In this document: positions 1,029 through 64,000 of the stretch, piece by piece
How positions within the stretch are numbered: the first letter of the stretch is position 1
How the letters are laid out: each line of letters starts with the position of its first letter
Source of the DNA: Patescibacteria group bacterium UBA3291
Lineage (GTDB): Bacteria; Patescibacteriota; Gracilibacteria; Absconditabacterales; Absconditicoccaceae
NCBI GenBank assembly: GCA_002361595.1
Contig: DETJ01000039.1
Coordinates: 960-64,959 of the forward strand
Reading direction: 5' to 3'
Length of the DNA stretch: 64,000 bases
Translations under genes and position numbers: made by a program
The notes under the pieces: model-generated
The model's database searches: none
What the model was told of the DNA's origin: nothing
What the model saw: only the letters and a program-made list of their open reading frames with translations

Positions 1029-1565
1029 ATGTATAACACTATAGAACAAGTAAAAGCATTTTACCCACTTCAGACCTGACAAGACAATAAAATTTTGAGA
1101 AAAAAATCTGAGAATGTTGACATTTTTGATGATGAAATCAAAGAATTTGCTGAAATTTTATTAGATCTGATGTATGCATATGATTGAGTAGGTTTAGCAG
1201 CTCCTCAAGTAGGAAAAAATATTCGCGTAATAGCTACTACTCAATGGAAAGAAGTGAAAAAATGACGCAAAAATAATAGGGAAATAATTTGAGAAACAGC
1301 AATGATAAACCCAGAAATTCTGGATCATTCTGAAGAAAAGAAAAAATGAGAAGAAGCATGTCTTTCAGTTCCATGACTTTGCGGTGATGTGGAGAGATGG
1401 ACTCGAATTGTGGTAAAATATCAGGATAAGAAGTGAAAGCAACACGTACAGAAATACACATGATTTAGTGCTGTAGTAATCCAGCATGAAATGGACCATC
1501 TGGACTGAGTATTATTTACTGATAAAGTCGTATGAGAAATAAGAAAAATTAAAGATCAATACTAA
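1029..1565 (+). CDS. def: Peptide deformylase
   Basis: Motifs GLAAPQVG, EACLSVPG and QHEMDHLDG are present. The Gly in the last two is TGA. Confidence 0.9.
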
Positions 1566-1589: not shown

Positions 1590-4097
1590 ATGATAAAAAA
1601 GTATTGGAAAAAAGTCTGATTTTTTTCCTTTTTGGTCAGTATTATTTTTTGAAATTTAGCTTTTGCAAGCGAATTTGATGTAACTAATTATGATATAAAA
1701 GCGAATATTAGAATTGATGGAACTATAGATGTGAACGAAAAAATTGATGTAAATTTCCACAAATATATGCATGGAATAGAGAGATTTTTCGAGAAATTTT
1801 ATGATGTAGGAGATTTTAAATTTAAGACAATTTATGATAATATTGAGGTAATCGGAGATAATTATCAGAATTTTGATGAATATAATGAAGTATATACTAG
1901 AATCTGAGATGCAGACGAAACTATAATCTGACAGCACCAATATAATATAAATTATACTACATACTGATTGATTAGAAATTTCTCATGAATGTGATACTCA
2001 GAATTATATTGGAATGTAATATGATATGACTGGTGAAATAATATAAATAAAGTAAAAATTCAGATATCATTGCCAAAATCTTATACATGATTTACTATGG
2101 ATGATTTCCTAATTTCTGCTGGATATTCGTATGAAGAAAATGAAGAGTTTGGATGAGAAATCAGCTGGGATGAGAATAATATCTATATTTCATATGATAG
2201 AAATCTGCGTCCTTATGAATGAATTACTTTGGCTGTAAAGTTTCCAAATGATTATTTTGAGTATGATCATGAAAAACAGGCTAGTTTATTTGTGGGATAT
2301 ACTCGTGATTATAATATAGAAAAGTATAAAATTTCATGAACAATACAGAAAGATGGAAACGTCAAATTTCAGGATGAAATCGAATTAAATATACTGAATG
2401 AGAATCCTTTTATTAGATGACTTCTGCCATATAGATATCAAGTGGATGGAAATCCTTATTTAGTCAAACTGAAAGATATTATCATAAATTGAACAGAAAT
2501 ATCATGAGATGAATATGATACATCAAATAGTTATAAAATAGTTTATCCTGAAGTCTTTAGCTGAAAATCGAGTATTTCGGCAAATTACTCAGTCTATGGA
2601 TTGATTAGACCTTTCTCAGGAGATTTCAGCGACTGGACTTACAATTCTTTTGCGACTTCTGGAGATTTTGATGAATGGGGATACAGATTATATTTGAAAT
2701 TACCTATGTTAGATTTGAATGAAAAAATCAAAAATTTGGAAATAAATCTGGATATTCCAGGTGGTTGTAGTGCAATTTATTTGGAGGATATATATCTAAA
2801 CCTTTGAAAATGATTTATAAATGCGAATGAATTTACTGAAACTTATGGAAGTATCTGATGTAATGATGATAAATTGGTGCTAGTTTATACCTGAGAAATC
2901 GATAATTATAAAAATATACAATTAAACATAAATTTCGTGAAATGAACTTTTGATTTAGATGAAGACTTATTGGATGCTTTGGCTGCTCTTGGAAATTGAG
3001 ACTTCTATTATAAAGATAAAATGAATACTCCATCACGGATATTTTTAATTTGAATGTTGATTTTTGGATGATGATTTGGGGCATTAATGTCCAAAAGGTA
3101 CAAAAAAGATATTAAAAATAATAAATTTATCGTCCAGTATGATGCTCCAAAATGAGTAGAACCACCTGAAACTGGAATATTGATTGATGATAAATTAGAT
3201 CCAAAAGATATTACATCTTTGATTTATCGATGGGCAAGTAATAAGTACATTAAAATCTGTGCTGAGGATGAGAAGGATAAGAAGAATAAGAAATTTTATA
3301 TAAAAAAACTGAAAGATTTACCAGAATCTACGAAAGATTATCAGAAAAATCTATTCAAAAAAATATTTGCTAATAGTAATGAATTTTATCTTTCGAAGAA
3401 TAAAAGTAAATTTTCTGAATATCTAACTAGTGCTGAGAAAGACTTGAAAACTTATATAAACTGAGAAAAACGATATAAATGTGATTTCTGAAATGTGGCT
3501 ATAAATGCTTATTCATTCAAAAGTGATACAAAAAGTTTAATATTTTGGATTGCTGTAATTTGGTGTATTGCTTATTGTTTCAGTGTCACTTGGATAAATT
3601 CAACCCTGAATCCTGTGTGGTCGTGAATGATTTGGGTTTTCTGGATTTGATTAGCCTGAATTATATGTACATATAGAAATAAAGAAAAAGAGCAATGAAC
3701 TACGAAATGAATCGAATTCCGCCAACATTGTTTGTGATTTAAGGATTTTCTATATAAAGTAGATAAGAAAAAGATAGAAGAATTAACTAAGCAGGATCCT
3801 TTATTTGTAGAAAAATCTCTGCCTTTTGCTGTAGTATTTGGAATAGAAACTGAATTTATCAAAAAAATCACACCAGAAATGTTGAGCTGGTATGATGGAA
3901 GTTTGAATAGCTTATTGTCATCTGTAGATTATATTAAAAGCTTTGCATCAGTTCCAACTTATCATAGTTACAGTGGTAGAAGCTCAAGCAGTTATAGTTA
4001 CAGCTCATCTTCATGACACAGCTGAGGTTCATCATTTAGTAGTGGATGATTTTCAAGTGGATGATGAGGTGGATGAGGATGAGGAAGATGATGGTAA
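1590..4097 (+). CDS. DUF2207-family membrane protein
   Basis: It has a signal peptide (MIKKYWKKVGFFSFLVSIIFGNLAFA), a large extracytoplasmic part and TM helices near residue 630. The family-typical Ser/Gly tail reads SSGGFSSGGGGGGGGGRGW when TGA is read as Gly. Track ORFs 2601.. and 3180.. are in the same frame. Confidence 0.75.
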
Positions 4098-8519: not shown

Positions 8520-9731
8520 TTAATTCCTTGGACTTCCTCATCGTTCCACTACTGTGAATCCTGTTCTTTCAGGAGTAGATAGTTGCTGCTCTGGAATATC
8601 AATTGGTTCATCAATAGCTTTCCAATCCATCATTACTCTGATTACTGTATCAGGTGTTGGTGTAATATTTAGTGGCATATTTTCATCTTGCTCTGCTTTA
8701 GTTTCGAATCTAATTAAATTCCATTCATTACCTTCCATCTGAGGAAGCCAGTAAACTATAAATTCTTCTGCTTCTCTTTCATTTAGTCATAGAATTGCAA
8801 GTTTTTCTTCCAAAAATGGGATTGTATCTTCTCATTTTACCACAAATCATTCATCAAAATTATCTTCTGCATACGTTTTTCATTCTCGATATAAAGCATA
8901 GAGTTTTCTTCATGTATCTATATCTTCTAAATCTCCATTTGGTTGTGCTATCACATTTCGTCATCTTTCAGAGTTATATTTTGGATATGTATGTGATAGG
9001 TTTTGTGGACTTCAAAGTTCTACATGAATTTTAGTTTCTGTAGTTGGATAGAGATAAATTATAGGTTTATCTAACATCATTCCTCCAGGATTGGTTCAAC
9101 AAGCCTGCCTACACGATTCATACGCTTTTAATTCATCTTGATATCAATCAAACATTTCATCAATCCACTCATTATAATATGGATTACTTGCTAAACTACC
9201 ATCAGAGCCAAAACTAAAAGTATAACAATTAAATCAGTTGTATCTTTCTTTACACCAATGATCATAATCCTCTTCTGCATAATAAAATTTTAATTCCTCT
9301 CAAATATCTGGCATTTCACAGCTATTTAAACAATCTTTTCGTTTTGGTATTTTACATTTTGAAATGCATCAATTTCAACACATATATCAAAATGGTTCAT
9401 CCTCATGTTTTTCACATTCTTTATAACACTTATTTGAACAATTCGGATCTCTTCGATCATAGTTTCAAGAATCTGAAATTCAAAAATCTATATTTACAGA
9501 AGTTCATGGACACAAAAACTCAACATCAAAATAATTAGGAATAATTCATGCTTTCGTTAATCATGCTCGTACTCATCATATAGCCCATATAAAAGCAAAA
9601 AACATCAAAAAAACCCTCAAGAAATTTTTTCATTTACTAGGCTCCTTAATTAATATCTGTGGAGCACTTTCTACTGAAGCATTTTCTACTGGAGCACTTT
9701 CTGTTGGAATATTTTCTATAATTTCATCCAT
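8520..9731 (-). CDS. Membrane-anchored Cys-rich extracytoplasmic protein of unknown function
   Basis: MDEIIENIPTES... leads into a TM segment (FLRVFLMFFAFIWAIGGV). A Cys-rich region follows (CSNKCYKECEKH..CGNGCISKCKIP..C). Then comes a conserved-looking domain: KPIIYLYPTTETKIHVEL ... FIVYWLPQMEGNEWNLIRF ... TGFTVVE-CGA-GG. The start is 33 nt after the stop of the upstream ATPase gene. Confidence 0.65.
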
Positions 9732-9763: not shown

Positions 9764-12700
9764 TTAAGATTCTTCTCATCATTCTGTTTGTGATTCTGCT
9801 GATGTAGAATTATCTGGTAAATCATTTTCTTCTATTGAAAGTCCAAGTCTTGCCCTAGTTTCAGCATCTACGAATTCTCTTCTTCTTCCATATTTCTTAG
9901 CTGAATATTCCTTCAGAATTGGCACAATTTTCTTATTCTGGTAATCTTTTGTATAAATTGAGTTCATACTAAATACACGTGTAGTAGCATTATCGATATT
10001 TAGTTTGATGTATGATTTATAGTTTGCTATTCATACAATATCCTGTCCAGACAAAACTGGAGAATATTCTTTTTCTAGGAATTCGGCATCTGGTGCACCG
10101 ACTTTGAATGACATCATCGTACCAACGTTACCAAATACGGCAGCTTTTACGTCAGATTTTCATCCTCATGAATCTCCAAGTCATTTAGCAGGATCAAGCT
10201 GTGCGATATACTGGTGTGCCATAATCAATCCAAGTCTATATTTTCTGGCCTCTGATAAGATATCAGCAAACGTTCATGATACGAAGTTCTGGAATTCATC
10301 GACGTAAAGATAGAAATCTTTTCTATCCTTCTCAGGAATTGAAGCTCTAGCCATCGCAGCATTGTAAACTTTAGATACAATAATCATACCTAGAAGCTGA
10401 GCATTCATTTCTCAGATTTTACCTTTTGAAAGATTAATAAGGAGAATCTTCTGATTATTCATAATATCATCAAATTTGAACGCTGATTTTGTTTGTCAGA
10501 TAATATTTCTGATAAGTCTGTTTGTATTAAATGATACGAATTTAGAAGAGAAATATGGAATAATCTCCTGTTTTTCTCTATCTCACATCGCATTATAAGT
10601 TTTTTCCCACCAGTTCTTTACGACTGCGTTGGTTACTTTCTTTAGTTTAAATTCACGATATCCATCATCTGTAAAGAGTCTAGTTACATCAAGTAATGTT
10701 GGTCTATCTTCAAAATCCTCAAGTAAAGTCAAACTTCCATATTTAAAATATTCCTGAATTCTTGGTCAGAATATTTCTGGTCCAAACATTTTCAAGAAAA
10801 TCTCTGTAGCATCGTTTACCGTTCTATCCGCCTGATCTAGATTGTCAATTTCATAAAGATTAAGTCACATTGGCCTCTCTTCATCTCATGCCTCGAAATA
10901 TACTACATCTTTCGCTCTTTCCTTTGGAATATAAGCAAGCATATCTTCTGCTAAATCTCCATGTGGATCGATAAGACAGATTCCATCACCATTCCAGATA
11001 TCCTGTCTAGCAATAGTTTGCAAAAATACTGATTTTCAGGTACCTGATTTTCATATACAATAATGATGTCTAGTTCTATCATCACGTTTGATATATACTG
11101 GAGAATAAACATTTCTATAAATATTTACTCATAGAAGAACTCATCATTTATAGATTTTATATCATTTAACTACTTTTTCTTTTGGTATATTCAAAGATAT
11201 TTTTCCATCTTCTCATACTACGATATTATTCTTTGCTAAATCTTTTTCTGAACACTCTGAAATTGGTTTCAAAATATTCTCTTTTTTTACAAATTTTATC
11301 GCTATATTTCCATCCTTTTCTACGATATTATTTTTTGATTTTTCTTCTTCTGAACATTCTATAATTGGTTTCAAATTTTCTCATTTTTCATCCATTTTCA
11401 TATATATAATTTCATCTTTCTCTATTATATTATGTTCTGATATTTCTTTTTCTGAACATTCTGAAAGAATTTTTATAGTTTCCTCCTCTTGTGTAACTTC
11501 AACAAAAATTGAACCACCTTTTTCTACGATATTATGATTCTTTTTATCTTTTGAACTACATTCTTCTAATGGTTTTAGATTTTCAGATTGTTCTATTCTT
11601 GTTCATACTGCCCAATGGTTTGGATATTCATCCAAAATCGCTGACAGATTTCATTTCTTGTATTTTTCTGCTAATATTCATGATATTACACGACCATTTC
11701 GTCCACTATCATCAAACATTGGTAAATTACTTGGAGGTGCTATAACTTTATATTGCATCCATTCAATAGCTGGTGAACGGTTATATAATCCATCTGGGAA
11801 ATGGTACAATGAACATAATTCATTAGTTGAAAAATATGAATATCTAGAGAAGAATCATGTTAAATACATTTGTACAGCGGCTCTCCATAATGGAATATAG
11901 AAGGCTCCAAAAATATCGTGTTTAAAATTTGATGATCAGAGAGCATTACTATATTCATCACTATAAACGTTATATGCACTTTCTAGATTATTTAATATTT
12001 CTTTTGCTCTTCATTTTACATTACTAGATGCAATTATTGAAATTGTAGAACGGAATGTTGGATTGGCTGCTTCTTCTCACATAGCATTTCTACTATCTTC
12101 CTTTGCTTTTACCATACGAACCATTGTTACATCTTTTTCTTCTTTTTTATTAGAAACCAATTGATTTCTTGGTCAGAAGATAGCATATTCAATCCATTTG
12201 AATGGATTAATCAGATTTTTGAAACTCCATCGTTGTGATTCATATAGATCAAGATTTTTGTATAATCTGTCTGCTGCAATTTCTCTACGAGAATTGAAAC
12301 TTGAATTTTCTGGTTTAGCTACTAAAACAATACTAACTGTATCTTCTGCGCTTACCTTACCCATTGAATCTATAATATTATTGATTGGATCGTCTGGAAT
12401 ATTTTTGTAAAGTTTGATAGTATATAATGGATCTTTTGTAGTTTCAAGGACCTGAATATCCGAATATTTTTTCTTGAAAAATTTTGGTCTAGCTACAGTT
12501 TCGATGGAAGCTGCAGAATACTGTGATGCTATCGCACTTTCTACCATATCCTGATATTCTGGATATGTTCACACCAAACAAGAAAGCTGTCCATCTTCGT
12601 ACTGGTATATGAAAACTAATTTATGCTTTCAAAAAACTTTTCACATAAACTTTTCATATGTACTTATTTCATTCATTTTGTGCAAATTTCATAGAACCTG

Positions 12701-13261
12701 TGACATTCTACCAATTTTTTCTTTCATATCTTTTGCAATTTCTTTTTCCTGTTCACGATCAGTTTTTCCATCTCATCTTGGTAAAAGTATTTTTAGAAAT
12801 ATAAGTCTTTGTGAATTACAAAATGCATATGCATATCTGAGAAATCTTTTTCAAACTCTAATAAATAAACTTACCAAAAATAATATAAACAAAAATACTA
12901 ATATTCATTTTCATATTAATCATAAGAGATTCAAAATTTGTTCTGGACTCTCAATATTATTAAAATCTACTGCTTCTACAGATGCCTGGAATCGATTTTT
13001 ACCAGATTCTTTTTGGTTTGTTTCAGGTTCTTTTGGTTGGATTTGTTCTTCTTCTTTTTCCATCCATATATTCAAAGTATCCTTTACTGCAACTACACTA
13101 CCATTATTAAAAAAAGATAAACATGCCGATTTATCATCTCATCGTGAGTCATTCATAAGTTTAGAAACATTATCTATTTGAGAAAAACCACCATGAATAA
13201 ACTGGTTGTGAAGTGCTGTTGTACAATTTTCTTGATTAATTTCCATTAATGGTTGGTCCAT
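9764..13261 (-). CDS. VirD4/TraG/TraD-like P-loop ATPase (type IV secretion coupling-protein type) with a large N-terminal membrane-anchored extension
   Basis: Walker A is HHYCIGKSGTGKS and Walker B is FYLYVDEFQNF. ARKYRLGLIMAHQYIAQL is typical of the TraD/TraG C-terminal ATPase domain. The N-terminal roughly 560 aa contain a TM helix (GILVFLFILFLVSLFI) and LKILLPRGDGKTD. I translated all 1165 codons and found only TGA interruptions. Confidence 0.7.
11180..11585 (-). repeat. Four tandem in-frame repeats of about 96-100 nt inside the ATPase gene
   Basis: The encoded units are ENLKPLEECSSKDKKNHNIVEKGGSIFVEV, ETIKILSECSEKEISEHNIIEKDEIIYMKM, ENLKPIIECSEEEKSKNNIVEKDGNIAIKFV and ENILKPISECSEKDLAKNNIVVGEDGKISLNI. 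Confidence 0.8.
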
Positions 13262-13349
13262 AGTTAATAAATTCCACTCTAATTATAATCCAAAATACAA
13301 AAAAAGTCAAAAAAAATCAGACTTTTTGATGGTAGAAAAATTTTATTAA

Positions 13350-13377
13350 TTGACTTTTTATGCTGTTTATATATAAT
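13350..13377 (+). promoter_or_regulatory. Sigma70-like promoter upstream of thyA
   Basis: TTGACT, a 16-nt spacer, then TATAAT, in AT-rich DNA immediately before the GC-rich CDS. Confidence 0.5.
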
Positions 13378-13431
13378 TCCTGCTAATTAAACAAAAACTG
13401 ATTGTCAAACAATAATAAAATTTTTAAATTT

Positions 13432-14226
13432 ATGAAACAGTATTTAGATTTATTACGAAGGATTATGTCCGAAGGTACGGACAAATCTGATCGTACTGGT
13501 ACAGGTACAAGGAGTATTTTTGGACACCAGATGAGATTTGATTTATCTGAAGGATTTCCTCTTCTGACCACAAAAAAGGTTCATCTGAAGTCTATTATCT
13601 ACGAGCTCTTGTGGTTTATTGCTGGCGACACAAATGTGAAATACTTGCAAGACCATGGTGTAACTATTTGGAACGAATGGGCTGATGAAGACGGAGATCT
13701 TGGTCCTGTATACGGCCATCAGTGGCGCAGTTGGCCAGCTCCAGATGGAAGATCTATTGATCAGCTATCCCAAGTTATCGAGACAATCAAGAAGAATCCT
13801 GACTCTCGACGTATGCTTGTAACCGCATGGAATCCTGGCGAAGTAGATGATATGGCTTTACCGCCGTGTCACTGTCTCTTCCAATTCTATGTAGCTAATG
13901 GAAGATTGTCCTGTCAGCTTTATCAACGCAGTGCTGATACATTCCTGGGCGTTCCGTTCAACATTGCATCTTACGCACTCCTAACGATGATGATTGCACA
14001 AGTATGTGGCTATGAACCTGGTGAATTTATTCACACGACAGGAGATACTCACATCTATCTCAACCACTTCGAGCAGGTTGCTACCCAGCTCTCTCGGGAA
14101 CCTCGTCCTCTTCCTCATATGAAGATCAATACAGATGTGAAGTCTATCTTCGACTTCAAGTATGAAGATTTCACTCTGGAGGGATATGATCCTTGGCCGG
14201 CAATCAAAGCACCTGTATCTGTGTAA
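13432..14226 (+). CDS. thyA: Thymidylate synthase (ThyA type)
   Basis: [12 protein letters not shown]...DRTGTGT...LWFIAGDTN...[13 protein letters not shown]...[12 protein letters not shown]...[11 protein letters not shown]...[21 protein letters not shown]. It is intact in the standard code. The track start (TTG at 13402) is replaced by the ATG at 13432. Confidence 0.95.
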
Positions 14227-14251
14227 CTTATCTTACTTTTTTTAGAAAAAA

Positions 14252-14283
14252 CCGTAGGAAGAATCTCTCCTACGGCTTTTTTA
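14252..14283 (+). terminator. Rho-independent terminator of thyA
   Basis: Perfect 8-bp stem CCGTAGGA/TCCTACGG followed by CTTTTTTA. Confidence 0.8.
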
Positions 14284-14295
14284 TTTCAAGAATTT

Positions 14296-18411: not shown

Positions 18412-19386
18412 TTAAATAATAATTTTCTTTTCAACCATCTTTTTACCGTATTTATATACTCCAAATATACGTAAAATTATAAATAATACAAATCAAATAA
18501 TACTAACTACCCAAAGTAAAATCTTAAAAACTCAGACTAACAATAAATATCCAATAACTATTCAAGCAATCTGAATTCATCCACTTTTCTGAGTTTTTTG
18601 TAAAATTGGTAGATAAGATTTACATGTGGATTTTGAGATTTCGTTGGTTATTCAAATAGTTTGGTCTTTTATAGTATTTCTGGTATTTTCAAAAAAATTT
18701 TCCACAGCATCAGCACTGGCTAAATCTTCTGATTTAGATAATGGATTTCATATTGCATAAAACTGTGGTATATTCAGATTTTCTTTTTCATCTTCTTTGA
18801 ATCGTCAAGTTATTTTATTTCGTGTATTTTTGAATGGATTTATAGTAGTTTCTGCTATTTTATTAGGAAACTGCTGAATATCATCACACGTGAATGGAAT
18901 CTGAGTATATTTTCATACCATCAAAACACAGAAAAATATTGTTAATAAACTAATAATAAGAAATCATCACTGTGTGAAATATGAAAATGGAGAAAAATCT
19001 GTATAATGATTTAATTGCCAATCCAAAAGAAATAATAAAGTTCATATTGCTAAGTTAAATAATATTAGTTCTGCTACTAAATACCGTGAAAATCCTAGTA
19101 ATATAATAAAAACTATAGTTTCGGTTAGAAATAGTCAAAATAGAGCTAATAATATATAACTAAATTTTATATTATAACAGTCTAAAGCTATAAAATAAAT
19201 GAGAATAAATAAAATTATAAAACTGATTGCTGGAATTATAAATCATTTTCAGAAAAATAATGATATTGTACAAACTAGATAACTAATCAATCATAATATC
19301 ATAAAAATACTAAGTCTAATTCTAGATTTTGCAGTAAATTCTTTATAATCTTTTGAATTTTCGGTTTGTTTGGTTTTATCTATCAT
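18412..19386 (-). CDS. Hypothetical multi-pass membrane protein
   Basis: 324 codons with only TGA interruptions. There are five or more TM segments. A CGG codon (19084..19086) lies inside a hydrophobic helix. Confidence 0.55.
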
Positions 19387-19394
19387 TTTTTATA

Positions 19395-20291
19395 TTAAAA
19401 ATAAAGTAGTCACATCGCAGAATTTCGTAGTATAATTTCTATAAAAAATCAGATTATCATTGATGGTAAAAATGGAATAGAATTTTTTAATTCGTATGGT
19501 TTTTTAGATTCCTTTATTTTAAAAATATATTTTATTAGATGTTCGATTCAGAAATATAATAATCAAACTCATGAACTCAAAATTATAAATAAACATACCA
19601 AATAACATCGCTCAAAAATTCAGTTAGGCTGTAAGAAAAATACTAACCAGGCTCATAAAATTGGAGCAATAATTACATCTCATAATCAGAATCATTCAGC
19701 ATTTTTTTTGTATTTTTCTTTCACATAAAGTTTGGAACCATAATAAATAAGACCAAAAACTAGAGTAAAAATTCAGATTCATAATAATATATCTAATCTA
19801 TTGGTTCAAAATGTTAATGTGAAAATCAAAGTAATTATTGCCAAAAATACAGTCGCTGTAATATGTAATTCATAAGTTTTTATGTCGTATAAGAATATTA
19901 TTCGAAGTAACCAAGCAGAAATTATGATGAAAATCGTGTAAATATAACCTTCATATAATCAAACATTATGACCCGGAATTCAACTGCTAGAAAATTTAAA
20001 AAATATTATCAAAAATATCAAAACTGTCGTGATTTCTAGGAATGGATAAAATCATGAAATTTTCTTTTTACAATATTCACATTTTCATCACTGAAAAAGC
20101 CACGAAAAAATCGGAATCAAATTTCTAGCAGCTAATTTATGATGACATTTTGGACATTCTGAACGTCAAACCAGAAATCATTTCCAAGTCTCTTTAGTTG
20201 GCCAATCTCATAAACGATAAAATATTACTGAACCAAATGATCCAAACACCAAACCAAAGAAAATTAATGAAATGATTATTAAGGTATACAT
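19395..20291 (-). CDS. pilD: Prepilin (type IV leader) peptidase, A24 family
   Basis: GSFGSVIFYRLGDWP, the zinc-ribbon cysteines RSECPKCHHKL...GGKCEYCKKKIS, LYDIKTYEL, GFGLGDVIIAPILG and IPFLPSMIIG. Confidence 0.85.
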
Positions 20292-26179: not shown

Positions 26180-26509
26180 ATGGCAGAAGCTAATAATATT
26201 ATAGAAATTACATCAAAAGATCAATTTGAAGAAGCTGTAAAATCTGAAACTTTAACAATAGTAGATTTTTGGGCTGTATGGTGTGGACCATGTAGAGTTT
26301 TAAAACCATTATTACACAAAATAGCTGGTGAACATCCAGAAATTCAATTATTAACTGTAGATGTAGATGTTAATCAGGAATTGGCTGCTCAATATGATAT
26401 TAATTCAATTCCAGCTGTATTTATGTTTAAAAATGGTGAAATAGTTGATAATTTCGTTGGAGTTATGCCTGAAAATGAAATTTTAGAGAAAATTGAAGCT
26501 AATAAATAA
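26180..26509 (+). CDS. trxA: Thioredoxin
   Basis: DFWAVWCGPCRVLKPLL active site; 109 aa; intact in the standard code. Confidence 0.95.
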   Translation: MAEANNIIEITSKDQFEEAVKSETLTIVDFWAVWCGPCRVLKPLLHKIAGEHPEIQLLTVDVDVNQELAAQYDINSIPAVFMFKNGEIVDNFVGVMPENEILEKIEANK

Positions 26510-26576: not shown

Positions 26577-27632
26577 TTAATGTTTTTTATGTCTAGCAGA
26601 AGTATACATATCGAAGCATTTATATAACCATTTATTCAAAACTAAGTCATAACTACCCCATTGTTCAATTTTTTCTCATCAGAGTGATTCTTTGAAAGCA
26701 CTTACTCATGCGAGTGGATGATCTGGAAATCATGTTGGAGCTCATCACATCATATCACATCTAGCATATCCATTATCTCTAGCTCGGCAAAAGGCATTAT
26801 ATTTCAAAAATTGCTGTCATCAGTAGGCATTTTTTCATCTTTCAGAGAATCAGTACAAATATATCATAGTTTTTCAGTCAAATCAGCATACACTTCATGC
26901 AATAATTTCTCATTCATATTTAGTTACAAAAAGATCTCAGTTATTATTTTCCTTAAAATATCTCATCAAAGCTTCAAATTGTCTTCTAGTAATTGGAGTA
27001 AATCATTTGAGCTGAGAAACTTCACACCATTTATGATAAAAAACTGAATGTTCCTCAGGAGTAGCTACTGAAAATTGGACTCAATGAGATAGTCATTTTC
27101 TTACTTTTTGTCTAGCTCAGTCATTAAATCATGCTAAAATTTCTTCATTAGATTTATCCAATTCATAAACTATGTTACTTTCTGGCATATTTTCACGAAA
27201 AGCCACTTTCAGTCAAAATTCATCACATACTTTTTGGCGTAAATCTAATCTCATATTTTTTACTTCTTCTTCAAATCATTCAGTTTTTTTTATATTATTA
27301 AAAAATCTGATCATAGTATTATTTATTCACAGTTGGAAACAAATATTTCACATTTTATTTCCATATTTTTTCTTGATATAATCGAGTTCTTTATGAATAA
27401 GTTCAATATCATCAGGCAAAAAAACTCACATCACTTGTAGCCATTGAATAGAAAATGGTCAGATTTTTTTCTTTTTTATCAATCAAAAATAATCTTGTCC
27501 AAAAAGATGTACTTTGAAAGTAGGTTTTCTATATATTTTTGACTGAATATCCTGTCGCAATTGAGATTGATAAAGATTATAATCTGAAATTGGTTCAAGA
27601 GGATATGAATAGAATGATGATAGAGAAGTCAC
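26577..27632 (-). CDS. FemAB-family peptidoglycan bridge-forming aminoacyltransferase
   Basis: TMIYLYGFSERG, GYARCDMMGGAP, and GVSAFKESLGGEKIEQWGSYD. The start is uncertain: GTG at 27632 is the first start-capable codon after an in-frame TAA. Confidence 0.7.
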
Positions 27633-27781: not shown

Positions 27782-29209
27782 ATGACATTTAAAGATCGAT
27801 GGAGAAATTATAAAAGTATTGGAATATTTTGTGTGATTTTTTTAGTATTTTTAATAATTTTTATAATTTGGAATATTTTATGAAAAAATGAAAATAAAAT
27901 TCAGACTGAGGAACGAGTAAATATTTCAGATTTTCCTACTACTCTGGAGATAGATAAAGAATGAAAATTATTATCATATCCAGAAGTAATGGTTTTAGCT
28001 GAAACTGACTGAAAAATAATGAATATGAATGTGACACAGTGAGATATAGTTGAAGAGCGAGATATTTTAATGCAGATATGAGAAGAAGATTGAATAGATG
28101 AAAATACTGATATAGATACAAGAATTGGAAGAAAATTTGCTGAATATTATCAAATGAAAAATGAATATAAACAGTTTGAATCGGATTTTTGAGAAGAAAT
28201 CTCAGTTTTAGAAGATAAATTGAGAGATTATAATGTTGAATTTAGTATAGCTGTGGATATGTGAGATGAAAAAACTACGGAAATTATGTCTGAAAAAATT
28301 GAAGATGTAGAAAATGAATTAAATTTATTAAAAGATAGGAAAATTTATTTAAAATCTGAAGTTAATAGATTAGAAAATGAAATAATGTTAGAAAATTTGG
28401 ATAATATAGAATATTTGTATGAATTAGATAAAAAATCTCCTAGAGCTTCGATTCAGTGAATAGTTTCAGAGATTTATGTACAGCAGTGAGATGAAGTAAA
28501 AAATTGAAATAAATTATTAAAAATTATAGACAATACATATAGTCCAGAAATAGCAGTTTGATTAAGTTTTAATGAATATGTACTTACACAGGATTTGACA
28601 TGAGTTTTAATCGTAACTGAAAATGAAAATCGATGAGATTCATATTATGAATGAGAGATATATACTCGTAGTCCAAAAATTAATGAAGACTGAGAATATA
28701 CACTCACGGTTAGAATATTAGAAGAAGTTTCAGATTTGATTTTGAATGATAAGAATACAAAAATTACTGTAATTTTTACCAAAGATTATCCAACGATTTG
28801 GATTCCAAAAAATTGTTTCACAGAAATATGAAAAAATAGTTGAAAACTAACTTTACGTGATGGTGATATAATGAAAATAAAAGAAATCTGAATAAAAAAT
28901 AAATGGAATAATTGGATAAATGTCGATAATTTAGCATTATTTTGACTTGAAAATGAAGAAGAAAAAGATGGAATGAATTTATGTGTTGAAGATTGGAATA
29001 AAATCATAAAAAATTGGGATAATGATCCAACATTACATGAGGATGAATCTTTAATTGAATGGCGTAACCAATTTGATAATGTAGAAGATTTATGTAAAGA
29101 ATTCATAAAAGTAAATCCAATGTACAGGAGTGGTCATAGAAATGCATCTATAATATCGTTATTATGATGAAGTGGTGAAAAAATTGAAGTATTATGTAGA
29201 TTAGAATAA
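27782..29209 (+). CDS. HlyD/membrane-fusion-protein-like periplasmic adaptor
   Basis: An N-terminal TM segment is followed by a long coiled-coil segment. There is a lipoyl-like hairpin (GIVSEIYVQQGDEVKNGNKLLKI) and a beta-barrel-like C-terminus. Confidence 0.5.
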
Positions 29210-29229: not shown

Positions 29230-29811
29230 ATGGAAAGAAAAGATTATTTAGTTCTAGTGAATAAACAAAATAAACTTCCAGATAATTGGGAAGAAATATC
29301 TGAGCTTGTAGAAGTGAAAAATAGTTTTGGAAAATTTCTAAAAATAGAGAAAGAAACATTGGAAAAATTTAATGAACTAAGAAGAGTTTTATTGGCTGAA
29401 TGAGTAGATATTGAGCTTGATAGTGCATATCGTTCTTTTTCTATTCAGAATGAATTTTTTGAAAAATTTAAAGAAGAATATGGAGAAGAATATGCAAGTA
29501 ATTATGCTGCACCTGCAGGTTATTCTGAACATCATACATGATTAGCAATTGATATATGTATCAAAAAAGAAAACTGAGAAATTATTTCAGAAAATCATGA
29601 AATGATAGTTGAGTTATGAGTTTTTGATAGAGTTCATAAAAAAATGGTAGATTATTGATTTATAGTTAGATATCCTGATGGAAAAGATAGTATTACATGA
29701 TATAGTTATGAACCTCGACATTTAAGATATATATGAGATGCTGATATAGCCAAAGAAATTATGGAAAATTGATTAACTTTAGAGGAATATTTGAATAAAA
29801 CTTGAAAATAA
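29230..29811 (+). CDS. VanY-type D-alanyl-D-alanine carboxypeptidase (peptidase M15B), cytoplasmic-looking copy
   Basis: LVLVNKQNKLPDNW, SAYRS, YSEHHTGLAIDI, GFIVRYPDGKDSITGYSYEP-CGA-HLRYIG. Confidence 0.85.
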
Positions 29812-29847
29812 ATATTTAAGTTAATGTTTTAAATTTTGTTATAGATT

Positions 29848-30585
29848 ATGAAAAAATCATTATTATTAAGTTTTGTTTTATTATCAGGAGTATTAATGGT
29901 TGCGTGTGAAAATAAAACTGATCAAAATTTAGAAGATACTCAGACTTGTTCTTTATGAGAATCAGTATGTGATCTTACGTGAACTAGTATTAATTCAAAT
30001 GAAAATCAGACTGGTATAGATTATTTAGTTTTGGTAAATAAAGAGAATAAATTACCAGATGACTGGGAATCTAAGCTAGAATTAGTAGAAGTACAAAATG
30101 CTTATGGTGAAACAATCAGAGTAGAAAAAGAAGCTTTGGAAAAATATAATGAACTAAAAGCTGATTTAGCGAAAGAATGAATAGAAATAGAACTGGATAG
30201 TGTATATCGTTCAGTAGAGAAACAACAGCAAGTGTGGGATGAATTTGAACAGGAATATGGACTCGAATATACTCAGAAATATGTAGCAGTTCCATGATAT
30301 TCAGAGCATCATACAGCTTTGGCTCTAGATATAGTTATTAGAAAAGATGGAGTGTTAATTTATGAGAATGATGATATGATAGCTGAGCCTGAGATATTTG
30401 CAAAGATTCATGCTAAATTAGCAGATTATGGATTTATACTTAGATATTTGGAATGAAAAGAAGATATTACATGATATGGATATGAACCTCGACATTTGAG
30501 ATATATATGAGATGCTGATATAGCCAAAGAAATAATGGAAAATTGATTAACTTTAGAAGAATATTTGAATAAAACTTGAAAATAA
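29848..30585 (+). CDS. VanY-type D-alanyl-D-alanine carboxypeptidase, lipoprotein paralog
   Basis: MKKSLLLSFVLLSGVLMVAC lipobox, then the same M15B motifs. The last 100 nt or so are nearly identical to the upstream copy. Confidence 0.85.
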
Positions 30586-32329: not shown

Positions 32330-33871
32330 ATGTCGTGACATAAATTGGTAATTAAGGATGCAGCGTGGCAATTATTTGGGAGAATTATTTCTGCTCTTTT
32401 TGGTTTTGTAATTACCAAGATTATTTCTTCATATTTAGGACCACTGAGATATGGGGACTATGGTACGATATTCAGATTTTTTGCTTGGTGGACTGCCCTA
32501 GTAGATTTTTGACTTTATGTAATCGCTGTAAAGCGTTTATGAGCGATTAAAGAAGAAAAATGAGATGATTCTCCAGAACTCAAAGAAAATTATCATAAAT
32601 TCGTCTGAACTAGAATGTTTATGATAATCGTGATTTATACAATTGCAATAGTTACAGCATATCTAATTCCTGCATATACAAGCAATCCATTCATAATTCG
32701 AGGATTACCACTTGCGATGCTATATTCTGCAAGTAATATGTTTGTAGGAATTCAGCAGCTTCCATTGCAGTTATTCTGGAAGATGAATAGACTTAGTCGA
32801 TCATTGATTGTGGCTAGATTATCACAATTAGCAGTATTACTACCGACTGTATATCTGATTTTTAGAAATATTAATTTTGAGTCCGAGCAAGTAAGTACAA
32901 CTGCAATTCTAGCATTTTGCTGTGTGATATTTTCAGTGGTAGCAAGTGCATTATGACAAAATGTAGACATGCATCTGAGGAGTAGAAATTTGCTTCTATT
33001 CAGAATAGATATAGACTTAAAATTTATAAAAAATATTTTCAAAGAAAATCGAAAATACTGATTTTCATATTTTTTCAGTTCATTTCATACTTTGATAGTA
33101 TTGATGTTTTTGGGTTGGTTTTTTCCAACTTCATCGTGATATGGATATGTGTGATATTGGGCATTAGCACTACAGTTATTAGAAATTTTATTAATTATTC
33201 CATCATCACTGTGAAATAGTTTACTTCACAAAATTCCTACATATTCCAATCTAGACAAAAGAAAATCGATGTGAAATCTGCTTTCATTAGTAGCGTGGAT
33301 TGGATGAATAATTGCGATAGATTTTCGGGTTTTTAATAGAGATATAATACTATTTGTATCGAGTAAAGAATTTCTATGAAGTCGAGATAGTTTAGCTACA
33401 TGGTGATCTAATCAGATTTTACCATTCCTTGGAATAGTATTATTCTTTAGTTTTATCAAACAGATTTTCAATTATCTATTTGTATCACTGGAGAAGCAGA
33501 ATGTACTTTTCAAAATAAATCTAACATGAGTAATAATCTGAGTTTTGGTAGCTTTATTTATAATCCCTAAATGGAATTTACTTGGATGAATTATAGTTCA
33601 AGTATTGATAGAAACAATATTTATGGTTGGTGCTATGATAGTAGCATGAAATATGAAAGTATTTCCAAAATTTCAGAAAAAAGCTTGATTTCAATTACTT
33701 GGAATTTTGGGAATTATGCTGGTAAGTGGATTATTTATCAATGGTTGGCTAGATAGTCATGAGATTAGTTGGCGAATGTTTTTGATAATTGCATGAATTT
33801 ACAATTTGATTATAGTTTGAATTTCTTTGAAGCCTATTAAGGCTGTGGCTAAAGGTTTGACGGTGGATTAG
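32330..33871 (+). CDS. Wzx/MOP-superfamily oligosaccharide flippase
   Basis: 513 codons and about 12 or more hydrophobic segments. The N-terminus VIKDAAWQLFGRIISALFGFVITKIISSYLGPLRYGDYG is typical of polysaccharide-biosynthesis flippases. Confidence 0.7.
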
Positions 33872-60562: not shown

Positions 60563-63526
60563 ATGGAAAGATTCATCGATGTTTTTGGATTGAAAAAAAG
60601 TAAAAAGTTGCCTGATGATGAATTATATGTAATGCTAATGCTTCAGAGAGCAAGCGAAGGAAGCGAGCCAGCAAAGGCAGACTGTGAAGATCCAATGATC
60701 AAAGCAGCATGTCTATTAGACTCAGACAAATGTCCAGCTGAATGTAAAGGTTCAGATGAAAAAGAAGACAACACAGTTGTTAAATCTGGAGACTTAGCTG
60801 TAACAGCTAAAGCTGCTGAAGGTAGAAAAGCTCTAATCGGATGAGTATCTGACTTAGACACTATCACTTTCAAGACATCTGAAGATGTAACTATATCTAG
60901 CATTACTCTTGAGAGATATGGATACTCTACAATTGATGATGTTGAAACAGTTCAATTAGAAGATGAAGATGGAAACATCATAGCTGATGCTAAAGAACCT
61001 AATTCTAAAGGTCAAGTTAAATTGACTCTTAAGAAAGATTACAAGACAGTTGATGGAACTTTCAAAGCAACTGTTGTTGTAAAAGTTAGAGAATTAGGAA
61101 AAGATATATCAGCAGAAACTGGAAATCCAGATGCTTATGCAGATGATGTTAATCCTAATGGTGCAAATACATATGCTGGATTAAAGAATGGATCAACATT
61201 AGGATTCAAAGTTATAGCTGCTGAATCTACAGCTAAAAACTTAAATCTTGATGATTACTCTCCATACACTTACGATTTAGTTAACTATGCTGGATCTAAA
61301 GTTCAATTCTCTACTAGAAACTCTGCAGAAAAAACTTATAATTTTGAAGCAGGAAAACTTTACGAAGTAGTTAAATTTAGAGTAAAAGCTCCTAGTGATG
61401 CTGCTATCTTGATTAAAGGATTTACTTTAACTGAAGATGACAACAACCTTGAAGCTGATAAATACGCTAAAGAAGTAACAGTTACAGTTAATGGAAAAGA
61501 AGTTAAAGGATTAAAATGGAATATTAACAAAGATGATGAATTAGTTGTTTCTTTCGATGAAATAGAAGTTGCTGGAAAAGAAACTGCTACAATAGCTGTT
61601 AATATGTCATTCAACGAAGAATTCGATAATTTCGGAAAAGCTTCTACATATTACATCAGCAAGCTTTCTAATTTTAATGCAATTGACAAAAAAACTGAAT
61701 CAAGAGTTTCTCAAGCTGATGGTTATACTATTGAAGGTATTCAAAAGCACGCAGCAAACTGATGGACTACATATATCTTCAATGGAGGAAAAATTAAAAT
61801 TGCTGGAACTAAATTAGGAACTGTTAATGCTGCTGCTGGTGCTTCTAATGTAAAAGTAGCTGAAGGTAATATTACAATTACAGAACCTCTTAGAGGATCT
61901 GCTCGAGTTAAAGTTAAGAGTAACGCAGCTGCTATAGATGAAATCAGATTAGTAATCGATGGTGAAGAATATGATGGATCTAAAGGAGCAGATGGTGTAT
62001 ATACTTTCAAATGACTTGAAATCGAAAAGTCAGGAAAAGTTGAATTAAGAGTTGATGTTAAATCTGAAGTTGATGGAGAACCTGCTGAATGAACAATAGA
62101 ATTCGCAGCTTCATTAAATAGTAACTCATTCTTCCCTGCAAATGCAACTGAAGCACAACTTGCTGATCGTGATAACAGTTTATTAAAATATGACGAATCA
62201 GGTAAGAAAGTTGCATATGATGAAGTATCTGGATCTCTTAGTATATCTAGCATAAAGATCCAAGCTGCTAGAGCTTCTCTTGATAACAAGAACACTAAAG
62301 AAGTTGAACTTGTTAAAGATGAAAACAACAGAAAAATTATTTTCGAAGGTACTTATACTGCAAAGAAAGGTGCTGTAACTCTTAAAAACTTTGTTATTAC
62401 AAAGGCTAGCGGTACAGCTGTTGATGGAAAACCTACATTCTATGTAACTATTGATAAAGAAGAATACGATGCTAACTGGAGTGTAAATGATGCTGAAGCA
62501 AAATGAGATATCGATGATATCGAAGTTGCTGATGGAAAATCAGTAAGTGTAGTAGTTGAAATTGAAGCTACTCCAACTGAAGGTAGTGCTGTATATAATA
62601 TCGAATTGTCATGAGAAGATGAAGACAACAATCCAGCTGGAAAAGCAGATGAAGATACAGCAAAAGTTAAAGTTGTAGAGCAAGGAACTCTTGAAATAAC
62701 AGATGCATCTGCTAAAAAGACAGTTCTTCTTAAATCTGACAGAACAGTTGCTAAATTCAGAATTAAACCATCTAAATCTGGAGGTGATGATATAATTCTT
62801 AAGAGTATGTGATTCACTTTAACAGATGAAGAAGGTGGTGATGGAACATGGGGAGATCTTTATAATAATTTGAAAGTTGATATAGATGGTGATACTTACA
62901 CAAAAGGTGGTCAACTAGAGATTGAAGAATCTAATCTAACTAACGGAGAAGCTATGATTAAACCAGATGTAAAAGTTCCTTCTGCATGATTAGTAGTAAC
63001 AGTTACTCTTAAATCTGAATTAGAAGTAACTAATGAAACTCCAGATGAAACATTCAAGAGATATTTCACTCTTGAAGAAGTTAACACAAATACTAATGTT
63101 GCAACAACATTCAGTAAATATTGGGTACCTGCTATTATAAAGAATCTTAAACAAGAAAAGAGTGGAGATACTACTAGATACACATTTGATATGGAAAATG
63201 ATGGATCTGATTCAGTATCTAACATGAAGTTCTATACTAATATTGAAAATGATGCTGATAAATGTGTTCCTACTGAAACTTTAGCAGAATCAAATACAAT
63301 AGAAGGAGCAGATGCTACTACACATTGTAACATAGTTTCACATAAAGACTCTGTATCATCTACTGATAACAAGATGTCTGCTATAAATGGAAATAAAGCT
63401 ACAAGTGTTGTTGCTATCTCTTATGAAGTTGGAGATCAAACAGTTATTATTAAGAAATCTGAATTCGAAGACTTCTTCGATTTAGGAAAAGATGACTTAA
63501 TGGTTTACTCTAATAGTAACAACTAG
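60563..63526 (+). CDS. Putative S-layer or other abundant surface protein
   Basis: 987 codons in one frame (track ORFs 60542, 61022 and 63191 agree). It shows strong codon bias, a beta-rich K/E/T/V/A/N composition, few TGA codons, a long upstream leader and a strong terminator. No classical signal peptide is visible. An alternative TTG start lies at 60542. Confidence 0.5.
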
Positions 63527-63654: not shown

Positions 63655-63688
63655 ATAGTTGTTTTTATTTATGACCCCGGGGTCCATT

Positions 63689-64000
63689 ATGCCAAGAAGA
63701 GAAGAATTCGAAGAAAATCAGTACTATCATGTATATAATAGATGATTGAATAAACAGAAATTATTTTTTTGTCGAAAAGATTTTGAAAGATTTTTACGAT
63801 ATATCACCCAGCAACAAGAAATATATAAAGACAAGGTATCTATAATATCATATTCAGTTTTACCTAACCATTTTCACTTTGTTATTTTGAATAAAGAAAC
63901 AGGTTTTGCTTTATCTGAATTTATATGAAAAATAACATCCAGTTATGGTAAATATATTTGAGCTAAATATTGAATGCAATGAAACTGAAAACTCTTTGAA
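63689..64000 (+). mobile_element. REP-associated tyrosine transposase (RAYT; IS200/IS605 TnpA-like Y1 family); 3' end off window
   Basis: MPRREEFEENQYYHVYNRGLNKQKLFF...DFERFLRYI...ISYSVLPNHFHFVIL...SEFIGKITSSYGKYI. The HUH motif is HFH. It is preceded by the perfect palindrome GACCCCGGGGTC (63673..63684) and a related ACCCCAGGGT at 63586..63595. Confidence 0.75.

Follow-up and report, generated by a model that had tools for sequence, protein, structure and literature searches.

Exchange with TGG codons and a candidate decoding tRNA support reading of CGA and CGG as tryptophan in an Absconditabacterales contig

Reassignments of sense codons are very rare in bacteria. Reassignment of CGA and CGG from arginine (Arg) to tryptophan (Trp), the subject of this study, was predicted for the Absconditabacteria by Codetta (Shulgina and Eddy 2021, eLife, PMC8629427), and the Absconditabacteria reassignment is taken as given in a later 2026 survey (PMC13092985). 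The closest other cases are CGG read as Trp in Anaerococcus and in the RFN20 clade of Bacilli and CGG read as glutamine (Gln) in Peptacetobacter (PMC8629427), and the SR1/Gracilibacteria use genetic code 25, in which UGA is glycine (Gly) (Campbell 2013 and Rinke 2013, as cited in PMC8629427). The change of CGA and CGG to Trp is so far known from computation alone. We have analysed 64,000 nucleotides (nt) of contig DETJ01000039.1 from Patescibacteria group bacterium UBA3291 (hereafter the window), in which CGA codons occupy the place of a conserved Trp in two VanY paralogues. We consider it likely, with a probability of roughly 0.87, that the organism belongs to the Absconditabacterales (candidate division SR1) and uses code 25 with, in addition, CGA and CGG moved from Arg to Trp. 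The window and its relatives back this reassignment by a codon-substitution matrix and by a decoding tRNA. The phenomenon itself has already been described; what is new here is the independent type of support and the 4-bp anticodon stem of the tRNA with anticodon UCG, tRNA(UCG).

The GC content of the whole window is 30%. With TGA as a stop codon the longest open reading frame (ORF) is only 306 amino acids (aa), and with TAA and TAG as the sole stops about 40 closely spaced genes appear, one of which has 7,440 codons. TGA makes up 767 of the 20,054 codons in our own gene set and is the majority Gly codon (52%). In codon-versus-codon alignments, the orthologue partners of window TGA codons are TGA (3594), GGA (375) and GGT (88). 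Because of this alternation, the ORF structure and the presence of TGA at a conserved Gly position of VanY (Table 1), we conclude that UGA is decoded as Gly, i.e. that the background is genetic code 25. Identical DNA recurs in four independent assemblies (ENA, JGI, Logan and NCBI), which argues against an artefact of assembly. Going by sample names, the data set appears to be from sheep rumen, and the relatives come mostly from metagenomes which by name look like rumen or gut. Those relatives that carry a name share about 35% PilD identity with the window and are metagenome-assembled genomes of Absconditabacterales, Gracilibacteria and 'Peribacteria'.

The gene set contains 62 CGA and 4 CGG codons, next to 75 CGT, 11 CGC, 322 AGA, 41 AGG and 276 TGG codons. 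This corresponds to 31 CGA, 2 CGG, 161 AGA and 138 TGG per 10,000 codons, with Arg written mainly as AGA. Both the GC content and the codon frequencies fall within the values published for the Absconditabacterales, where CGA stays below 37 and CGG below 7 per 10,000 codons (PMC8629427). The original prediction, made from the window sequence alone, had taken the window for a likely member of the clade for which the CGA/CGG change was computationally inferred, and the codon frequencies agree with this code, as do the codon exchange and the VanY column described below.

Exchange of CGA and CGG with TGG in orthologous genes

Relatives were collected with a PilD scan of genomes and an RNase III scan of metagenomes, which yielded two syntenic genomes (L008 and L009), six distant genomes and 71 metagenomic contigs. 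The window genes were compared, codon against codon, with their orthologues in L008, L009 and L017-L087 at a minimum of 55% identity. The window CGA codons gave 251 pairs, with CGA (167) and TGG (63) as the main partners, followed by CGG (7), AAA (6), AAT (3), AGA (1) and others (4). The reverse was seen for the 666 pairs of window TGG codons, where the partner was TGG in 543, CGA in 77 and CGG in 10. Window AGA codons (1,710 pairs) were paired with AGA, AGG, AAA and AAG, and window CGT codons (786 pairs) with CGT, CGC and CAT, and in neither case was CGA, CGG or TGG ever the partner; for AGA, AGG, CGT and CGC together, there were 2,872 pairs with not a single CGA, CGG or TGG.

The same picture emerges when sites are counted. 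A TGG partner was found at 23 of the 39 native CGA/CGG sites, and an AGA, AGG, CGT or CGC partner at only one of them. CGA or CGG was a partner at 27 of 83 TGG sites, none of which had one of the four Arg codons as partner, and the 223 sites with AGA, AGG, CGT or CGC were without any TGG partner (0/223) and without any CGA/CGG partner (0/223). A Fisher test of CGA/CGG-to-TGG versus CGA/CGG-to-other-Arg exchanges gives p ~1e-126 on pairs; these are non-independent, and the site counts are 23/39 versus 1/39. Native CGG codons number only three in the window and have CGA and TGG as partners, so that CGG follows CGA, and TGG-CGG-CGA constitutes a synonymous route of two transitions.

We regard this exchange pattern as decisive: in evolution, native CGA and CGG codons are interchangeable with TGG, and not with Arg codons. 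Total separation from the Arg codons in a genome dominated by AGA is incompatible with CGA as Arg, and synonymy with TGG is what the reassignment predicts. The original prediction had proposed codon-to-column comparison as a check, and CGA and CGG indeed behave as synonymous with TGG and in no case with AGA, AGG, CGT or CGC; it had also named a predominance of native CGA codons in Arg columns as the opposite outcome, and CGA at Arg positions was found only in the compositionally foreign thyA gene discussed below, as its restriction to native codons had anticipated.

Under a standard code, CGA would be Arg and the matches to Trp columns would be true Trp-to-Arg substitutions in a fast-evolving lineage. 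While thyA reads sensibly with CGA as Arg, and polar residues prevail in the columns of a few CGA sites, such a code is hard to reconcile with 64 CGA/CGG-to-TGG pairs versus a single pair with another Arg codon, or with 0 of 2,872 Arg-codon pairs leading to CGA or CGG. At 30% GC, and with AGA five times more common than CGA, free exchange between CGA and AGA would be expected. With A20 also missing from tRNA(UCG) (see below), we consider the standard code hardly credible. We give just as little weight to CGA and CGG being unassigned or encoding another residue, for instance another aromatic one, or to an assembly or contamination artefact. Codons for Tyr, Phe or Leu are present among the CGA partners in distant relatives, but in close orthologues 64 of the 85 non-identical partners of CGA/CGG are TGG, and none is TAT or TTT. 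Moreover, intact conserved genes contain CGA at a frequency of about 31 per 10,000 codons, and the sequence is present in the four independent assemblies and in about 80 related contigs.

The VanY paralogues provide the column that is informative outside the clade. Both genes match Pfam VanY (PF02557; E = 5e-30 and 2e-31), and the DNA around both CGA codons reads 'gaa cct CGA cat tt(a/g) aga tat', giving E-P-CGA-H-L-R-Y. The original prediction that both paralogues carry CGA at the Trp of a YEPWH.RY motif was right in its coordinates, and this column is Trp in all five aligned LdcB/VanXY chains of solved structure (PDB; EPWH[LIF]RY or EEWHLRY). Homologues from other phyla agree: of the 146 VanY domains in 120 such proteins, 133 have Trp at this position. 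The protein-database query was a chimera of VanY, FemAB and PilD, with which only VanY matches were returned. The last ~120 nt of the paralogues (29683-29811 versus 30457-30585) differ at five positions (~96% identity), while the remainder is far more diverged. This near-identity of the C-terminal ends indicates a probable duplication or recent gene conversion, and the two VanY CGA sites therefore represent one event and are not independent.

A candidate decoding tRNA

A tRNA with anticodon UCG was detected with ARAGORN in 20 related contigs, with 19 copies being identical and one having a compensated acceptor pair. The copy at positions 13869-13939 (minus strand) of contig L060 is identical in 18 other loci (e.g. 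L049, L054, L092, L096 and L100-L112), and the immediate upstream neighbour of the tRNA gene is always a 280-283-aa gene, itself preceded by the genes for a U32 peptidase and ftsW. With its ends set by the Rfam tRNA model, the tRNA is 71 nt long and has a 7-bp acceptor stem, a G1:U72 pair, discriminator G73, G37 and a D-loop (AGUGGUA) with U20 instead of A20, while a U27-C43 mismatch leaves an anticodon stem of 4 bp; the CCA end is unencoded. The anticodon stem (CGGU/ACCG) resembles that of E. coli tRNA-Trp, which hints at a possible descent from tRNA-Trp. Shulgina and Eddy (PMC8629427) classified such tRNAs as Trp-type when G73 is present without A20, with additional support from an A/G1:U72 pair, and going by its sequence the tRNA(UCG) of the relatives is of this predicted type.

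The tRNA(UCG) is present in contigs from the same samples as the window (L096, L098, L101 and L105). The FtsW-linked copies come from co-occurring sister populations with a different gene order. The presence of the tRNA in the genome of the window organism is predicted from relatives with 82-94% identical RNase III. Only a single type of tRNA(UCG) was found in ~1 Mb of related sequence, and neither tRNA-Arg(ACG/ICG) nor tRNA(GCG) was present among the loci retrieved. The published supplements of the key papers on this code contain no tRNA sequences.

In the mechanism that we propose, Arg would be written with AGA/AGG and CGU/CGC only, and the dedicated tRNA with anticodon UCG would read both CGA and CGG. 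This tRNA lacks A20, the main determinant for arginyl-tRNA synthetase, and has the tryptophanyl-tRNA synthetase determinants G73 and G1:U72, and would thus be charged with Trp. Candidate Phyla Radiation bacteria, including the Absconditabacteria, were reported to be without tRNA(ACG/ICG) (PMC8629427), so that no inosine-type tRNA(ICG) would compete for CGA in this group. An Arg-accepting decoder of CGA or CGG would likewise be absent.

CGA and CGG sites across the window

The positions of the CGA and CGG codons and the corresponding codons in orthologues are given in Table 1, together with other features of the window. Several of these sites featured in the original prediction. The CGA codons of the 8520-9731 protein (8541, 8886 and 8958) were confirmed, with TGG partners at 8541 and 8958. 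PilD matches Pfam A24_N_bact and Peptidase_A24, and its CGA codon inside a transmembrane helix was confirmed at 19902, with two further PilD CGA sites pairing with TGG. The CGG at 19084 was also correctly placed in a hydrophobic helix, and the CGA codons in its close orthologues fit the same reading as Trp. The conserved Arg positions put forward as controls are indeed without CGA or CGG, being CGT in DPPREG (16501) and RSECP (20163), and AGA in TMARD (16603). For the FemAB-family gene the outcome was mixed: the codons and coordinates were right, and CGA or CGG is retained in the six orthologues, which span 42-96% identity, but the 'W.K.NG' pattern cited in support is absent from solved homologues, as the column at 26784 is Y or R in the PDB homologues and hence uninformative outside the clade.

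Table 1. Positions, strand and orthologue codons of CGA/CGG sites and other features of the window.
Feature	Position	Strand	Context and orthologue codons
CGA, VanY paralogue 1 (gene 29230-29811)	29716..29718	+	Motif Y-E-P-[CGA]-H-L-R-Y; sole available orthologue TGG
CGA, VanY paralogue 2 (gene 29848-30585)	30490..30492	+	Same Y-E-P-[CGA]-H-L-R-Y motif; orthologue TGG
TGA read as Gly, VanY paralogue 2	30293..30295	+	V-P-[TGA]-Y-S-E-H-H; aligns to G of conserved 'PGxSEHQTG' in PDB homologues
CGA, FemAB-family gene (26577-27632, GTG start), N-terminal region	27555..27557	-	NLYQSQL-[CGA]-QDIQ; CGA or CGG in 6 orthologues (46-96% identity), never AGA/CGT
CGA, FemAB-family gene	26784..26786	-	AFC-[CGA]-ARDNGY; CGA in 6/6 orthologues
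CGA, peptide deformylase	1404..1406	+	VERWT-[CGA]-IVVKY; CGA 19, TGG 18, CGG 5
CGA, DUF2207 protein	3471..3473	+	CGA 10, TGG 5, CGG 1; close-relative proteins R (from CGA) 21, W 22
CGA, DUF2207 protein, discordant	3228..3230	+	CGA in 16/16 DNA orthologues; close relatives R (CGA) 24, Q 13, W 1
CGA, 8520-9731 protein	8541..8543	-	TVVE-[CGA]-GG; TGG 5, CGA 1
Further CGA, 8520-9731 protein	8886, 8958, 9339, 9453, 9567	-	At 8958 CGA 4, TGG 1
CGA, 1165-aa ATPase-like protein	11699..11701	-	CGA 9, TGG 7
CGA sister sites, 1165-aa ATPase-like protein	12230, 13142	-	12230: CGA 11, TGG 4; 13142: CGA 12, TGG 3
CGA, variable polar position	12992..12994	-	AAA 6, CGA 4, AAT 3, AGA 1, CAA 1, TTA 1
thyA, 264-aa thymidylate synthase	13432..14226	+	2 CGA and 1 CGG: 13807-13809, catalytic R126; 14095-14097, R222; 13456-13458, variable position
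CGG, membrane protein (18412-19386), hydrophobic helix	19084..19086	-	Both close orthologues CGA; distant ones I/H
CGA, PilD prepilin peptidase (19395-20291), inside transmembrane helix	19902..19904	-	Close relatives CGA; distant ones I/V
Further CGA, PilD	19608, 19425	-	19608: TGG in both close orthologues; 19425: orthologue TGG
TGA (Gly), PilD	20052-20054	-	CKKKIS-G-FYPFLE; CGA or CGG in seven relatives
G-domain gene, 199 aa	24197-24796	-	
Thioredoxin	26180-26509	+	
CGA, HlyD-like protein (27782-29209)	27914..27916	+	TGG partner
Further CGA, HlyD-like protein	27797, 28058, 28631	+	28058 pairs with TGG; 27797 with CGG
CGA, polysaccharide flippase (32330-33871)	32798..32800	+	TGG partner
Further sites, flippase	32699, 33050, 33326 (CGG), 33383, 33773	+	TGG partners at 33050, 33326 and 33773
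Giant gene, 7,440 codons	34349-56668	+	
987-aa Ala/Lys/Val-rich protein	60563-63526	+	
IS200/Y1-transposase-like gene	63671-64000	+	

In the flippase the exchange is also seen from the other side, with the TGG codons at 32486, 32489 and 32777 pairing with CGA or CGG in orthologues. Comparison with homologues outside the clade was of varying use. The CGA column of the GT2 glycosyltransferase is L in PDB homologues and that of the deformylase varies between I, R and S, and as with FemAB, these columns do not discriminate. One of the DUF2207 CGA columns is hydrophobic, one is a mixture of W and K, and at the third (3228) Lys predominates among distant homologues. The giant gene encodes Flg_new-type repeats and contains 154 TGG and 8 CGA codons; its internal repeats were aligned to look for TGG opposite CGA, and the sites covered were variable, mostly polar and uninformative.

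At one position of PilD (20052-20054), the window has TGA, read as Gly, where seven relatives, including distant ones of the Gracilibacteria type, have CGA or CGG. Under the new code a single C/T transition between TGA and CGA swaps Gly and Trp, and TGA is the commonest non-synonymous partner of CGA (11/284). Two further genes are of separate interest. The first is a stand-alone or split G-domain, as the 199-aa gene, which is shared with relatives at 95-99% conservation, covers no more of EF4/LepA than its GTP-binding domain (Pfam GTP_EFTU), while full-length LepA is ~600 aa. The second, resembling IS200/Y1 transposase genes, begins at the right edge of the window and has two CGA and six TGA codons, and this mobile-element gene therefore uses the code of its host.

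A number of observations weigh against CGA and CGG as Trp codons. At the level of single sites, the deformylase CGA aligns to R in two of five PDB chains, most distant DUF2207 homologues have Lys in the 3228 column (61 of 76, next to E 8 and Q 4), the 12992 site has K, N and R in orthologues and is the sole native site with an Arg-codon partner, and the giant-protein CGA codons at 48164 and 52412 are in repeat linker columns holding Q, T, E, D or K. The tRNA(UCG) with Trp identity elements that the original prediction had proposed to look for does exist in the 20 related contigs, but it was not located in the organism's own contig, i.e. the window and the 8.4 kb to its left, where only tRNA-Ser and tRNA-Cys were found. 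A literature search found neither experimental confirmation of the CGA/CGG-to-Trp code nor proteomic data on Trp incorporation. Finally, thyA has CGA and CGG at conserved Arg positions, including the catalytic R126.

The thyA exception and comparison with described codes

The ThyA protein of the window is most similar in kind to enzymes of proteobacteria and a close match to them (E = 2e-136 with the Brucella protein). R126 (catalytic) and R222 (conserved) were placed by a PDB alignment, and their roles are taken from PMC6005164. None of the 18 Gly codons in thyA is TGA (p = 2e-6), and the GC content at third codon positions (GC3) is 0.39, versus 0.17 in the rest of the window. The lack of TGA and the doubled GC3 point to a probable foreign origin of thyA rather than to different decoding. 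Few TGA codons are also found in two genes with a normal low GC3, the 987-aa protein (8 of 72 Gly codons) and thioredoxin (0 of 4), where this may reflect avoidance in highly expressed genes, a pattern unlike that of thyA.

An assembly chimera at thyA was considered and rejected, as the same junctions are present in the independent assemblies and in the related contig L017. This contig shares the 264-aa thyA with colinear homologous flanks, a promoter-like TTGACT..TATATAA sequence and a terminator hairpin with compensatory changes. Between the two thyA genes, 96 codon changes are synonymous and 23 non-synonymous, so that the 264-aa thyA is probably under purifying selection. The region 13262-14295 is the same promoter-to-terminator slot in L008, L017, L018, L022, L038, L043, L056, L060 and L064, and in the eight relatives other than L017 this identical slot is occupied by a ~340-aa thyA of the L. 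casei type, 35-38% identical to that of the window. Conservation between the loci of these two unrelated thyA types covers the intergenic regions and reaches 17 nt into the coding sequence, so that the replacement affected the coding sequence alone. The 340-aa type also has a GC3 of 0.36-0.43 and TGA in only 3 of 170 Gly codons, so that the ten thyA alleles together have TGA in 3 of ~190 Gly codons, versus 52% in native genes. Other Arg codons (CGT/CGC/AGA/AGG) occur in 8 of 10 CGA/CGG columns of the 340-aa thyA and TGG in none, which differs from the native sites (1/39 Arg and 23/39 TGG) with Fisher values of 9e-7 and 8e-4, respectively. The ratio of synonymous to non-synonymous changes in the 340-aa thyA is ~2.3:1 in two of four pairs, and ~1:1 in the most divergent pair.

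These data allow the tentative suggestion that thyA in this lineage continues to evolve by the standard code although the genome around it is recoded, either through a constant supply of coding sequences from standard-code donors, taken up by recombination at the conserved ends, or through partial decoding of CGA and CGG as Arg. Going by sequence features, repeated import or gene conversion from standard-code donors via the conserved gene ends fits best, because it would account for all three oddities of thyA as well as for the one documented replacement, while ambiguous decoding, or tolerance of Arg-to-Trp changes, would account for the CGA/CGG pattern only. With ambiguous decoding, CGA and CGG would be read mostly as Trp and appreciably as Arg, either because both synthetases charge tRNA(UCG), which retains C35 and G36, the anticodon determinants for arginyl-tRNA synthetase, or through a second decoder. 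This would be in line with the ten thyA alleles retaining CGA/CGG at conserved Arg columns under purifying selection, and with the handful of native CGA codons in Lys/Arg-like columns, but leaves unexplained the missing TGA and doubled GC3, the very features that point to foreign origin. It is also at odds with the CGA in the near-invariant VanY Trp column, with the one type of tRNA(UCG) in ~1 Mb, and with 0 of 223 Arg sites having drifted to CGA or CGG, although some drift would be expected at tolerant sites, and we therefore consider ambiguous decoding improbable.

With regard to the import of thyA, sequence identity of the gene roughly tracks that of its flanks, which speaks for a certain time of residence. 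For the 264-aa thyA, the best relatives share 80% identity and lie on large IMG/VR contigs with the standard code, a distance too great for a donor to be named, and for the 340-aa thyA there was no close match in phage records, IMG/VR or PDB. If repeated import is true, the barrier set by the genetic code would be crossed by genes again and again, and their products would contain Trp at some of the Arg sites. With either import or partial Arg decoding thyA would be a natural reporter of CGA decoding, and it bears both on the changed code as a barrier to horizontal transfer and on the question of clean versus ambiguous decoding.

The reassignment also has consequences for public databases. The public protein P0121 (window 1590-4097) is 95% identical to our own translation, with the shortfall matching its 43 TGA codons. 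This suggests that the public proteins of this contig were translated with TGA as Trp (table 4) and CGA as Arg, and that entries from this lineage may be systematically mistranslated. In such entries about one in six tryptophans (66 CGA/CGG versus 276 TGG) and half of the glycines would be wrong. The lineage is abundant in public metagenomes, which makes metaproteomic confirmation of the code realistic.

Compared with the Absconditabacteria code predicted by Codetta, the window differs in nothing of kind: the same codons are changed to the same amino acid, UGA is Gly, GC content is low, CGA occurs at ~30 per 10,000 codons, CGG is very rare, Arg is encoded by AGA and CGU, and tRNA(UCG), here from the contigs of relatives, has G73 and is without A20. 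The differences are in the type of evidence, with voting by Pfam columns in the Codetta study and a codon-substitution matrix over ~80 related metagenomic contigs here, and in the habitat of the lineage, which going by sample names is apparently rumen or gut. For this order, the 2026 survey (PMC13092985) has only 5-bp stems, for tRNA(CCG), while the tRNA(UCG) described here has a 4-bp anticodon stem (U27-C43). With code 25 the window shares TGA as Gly, but table 25 as usually applied keeps CGA and CGG as Arg. The changes in Anaerococcus, the RFN20 clade and Peptacetobacter are similar in that a rare Arg codon of the CGN box is reassigned in low-GC bacteria with a dedicated tRNA. However, in those clades CGA remains Arg via tRNA(ICG) and CGG alone changes via tRNA(CCG), whereas in the lineage of the window both CGA and CGG would change, via a tRNA with U34.

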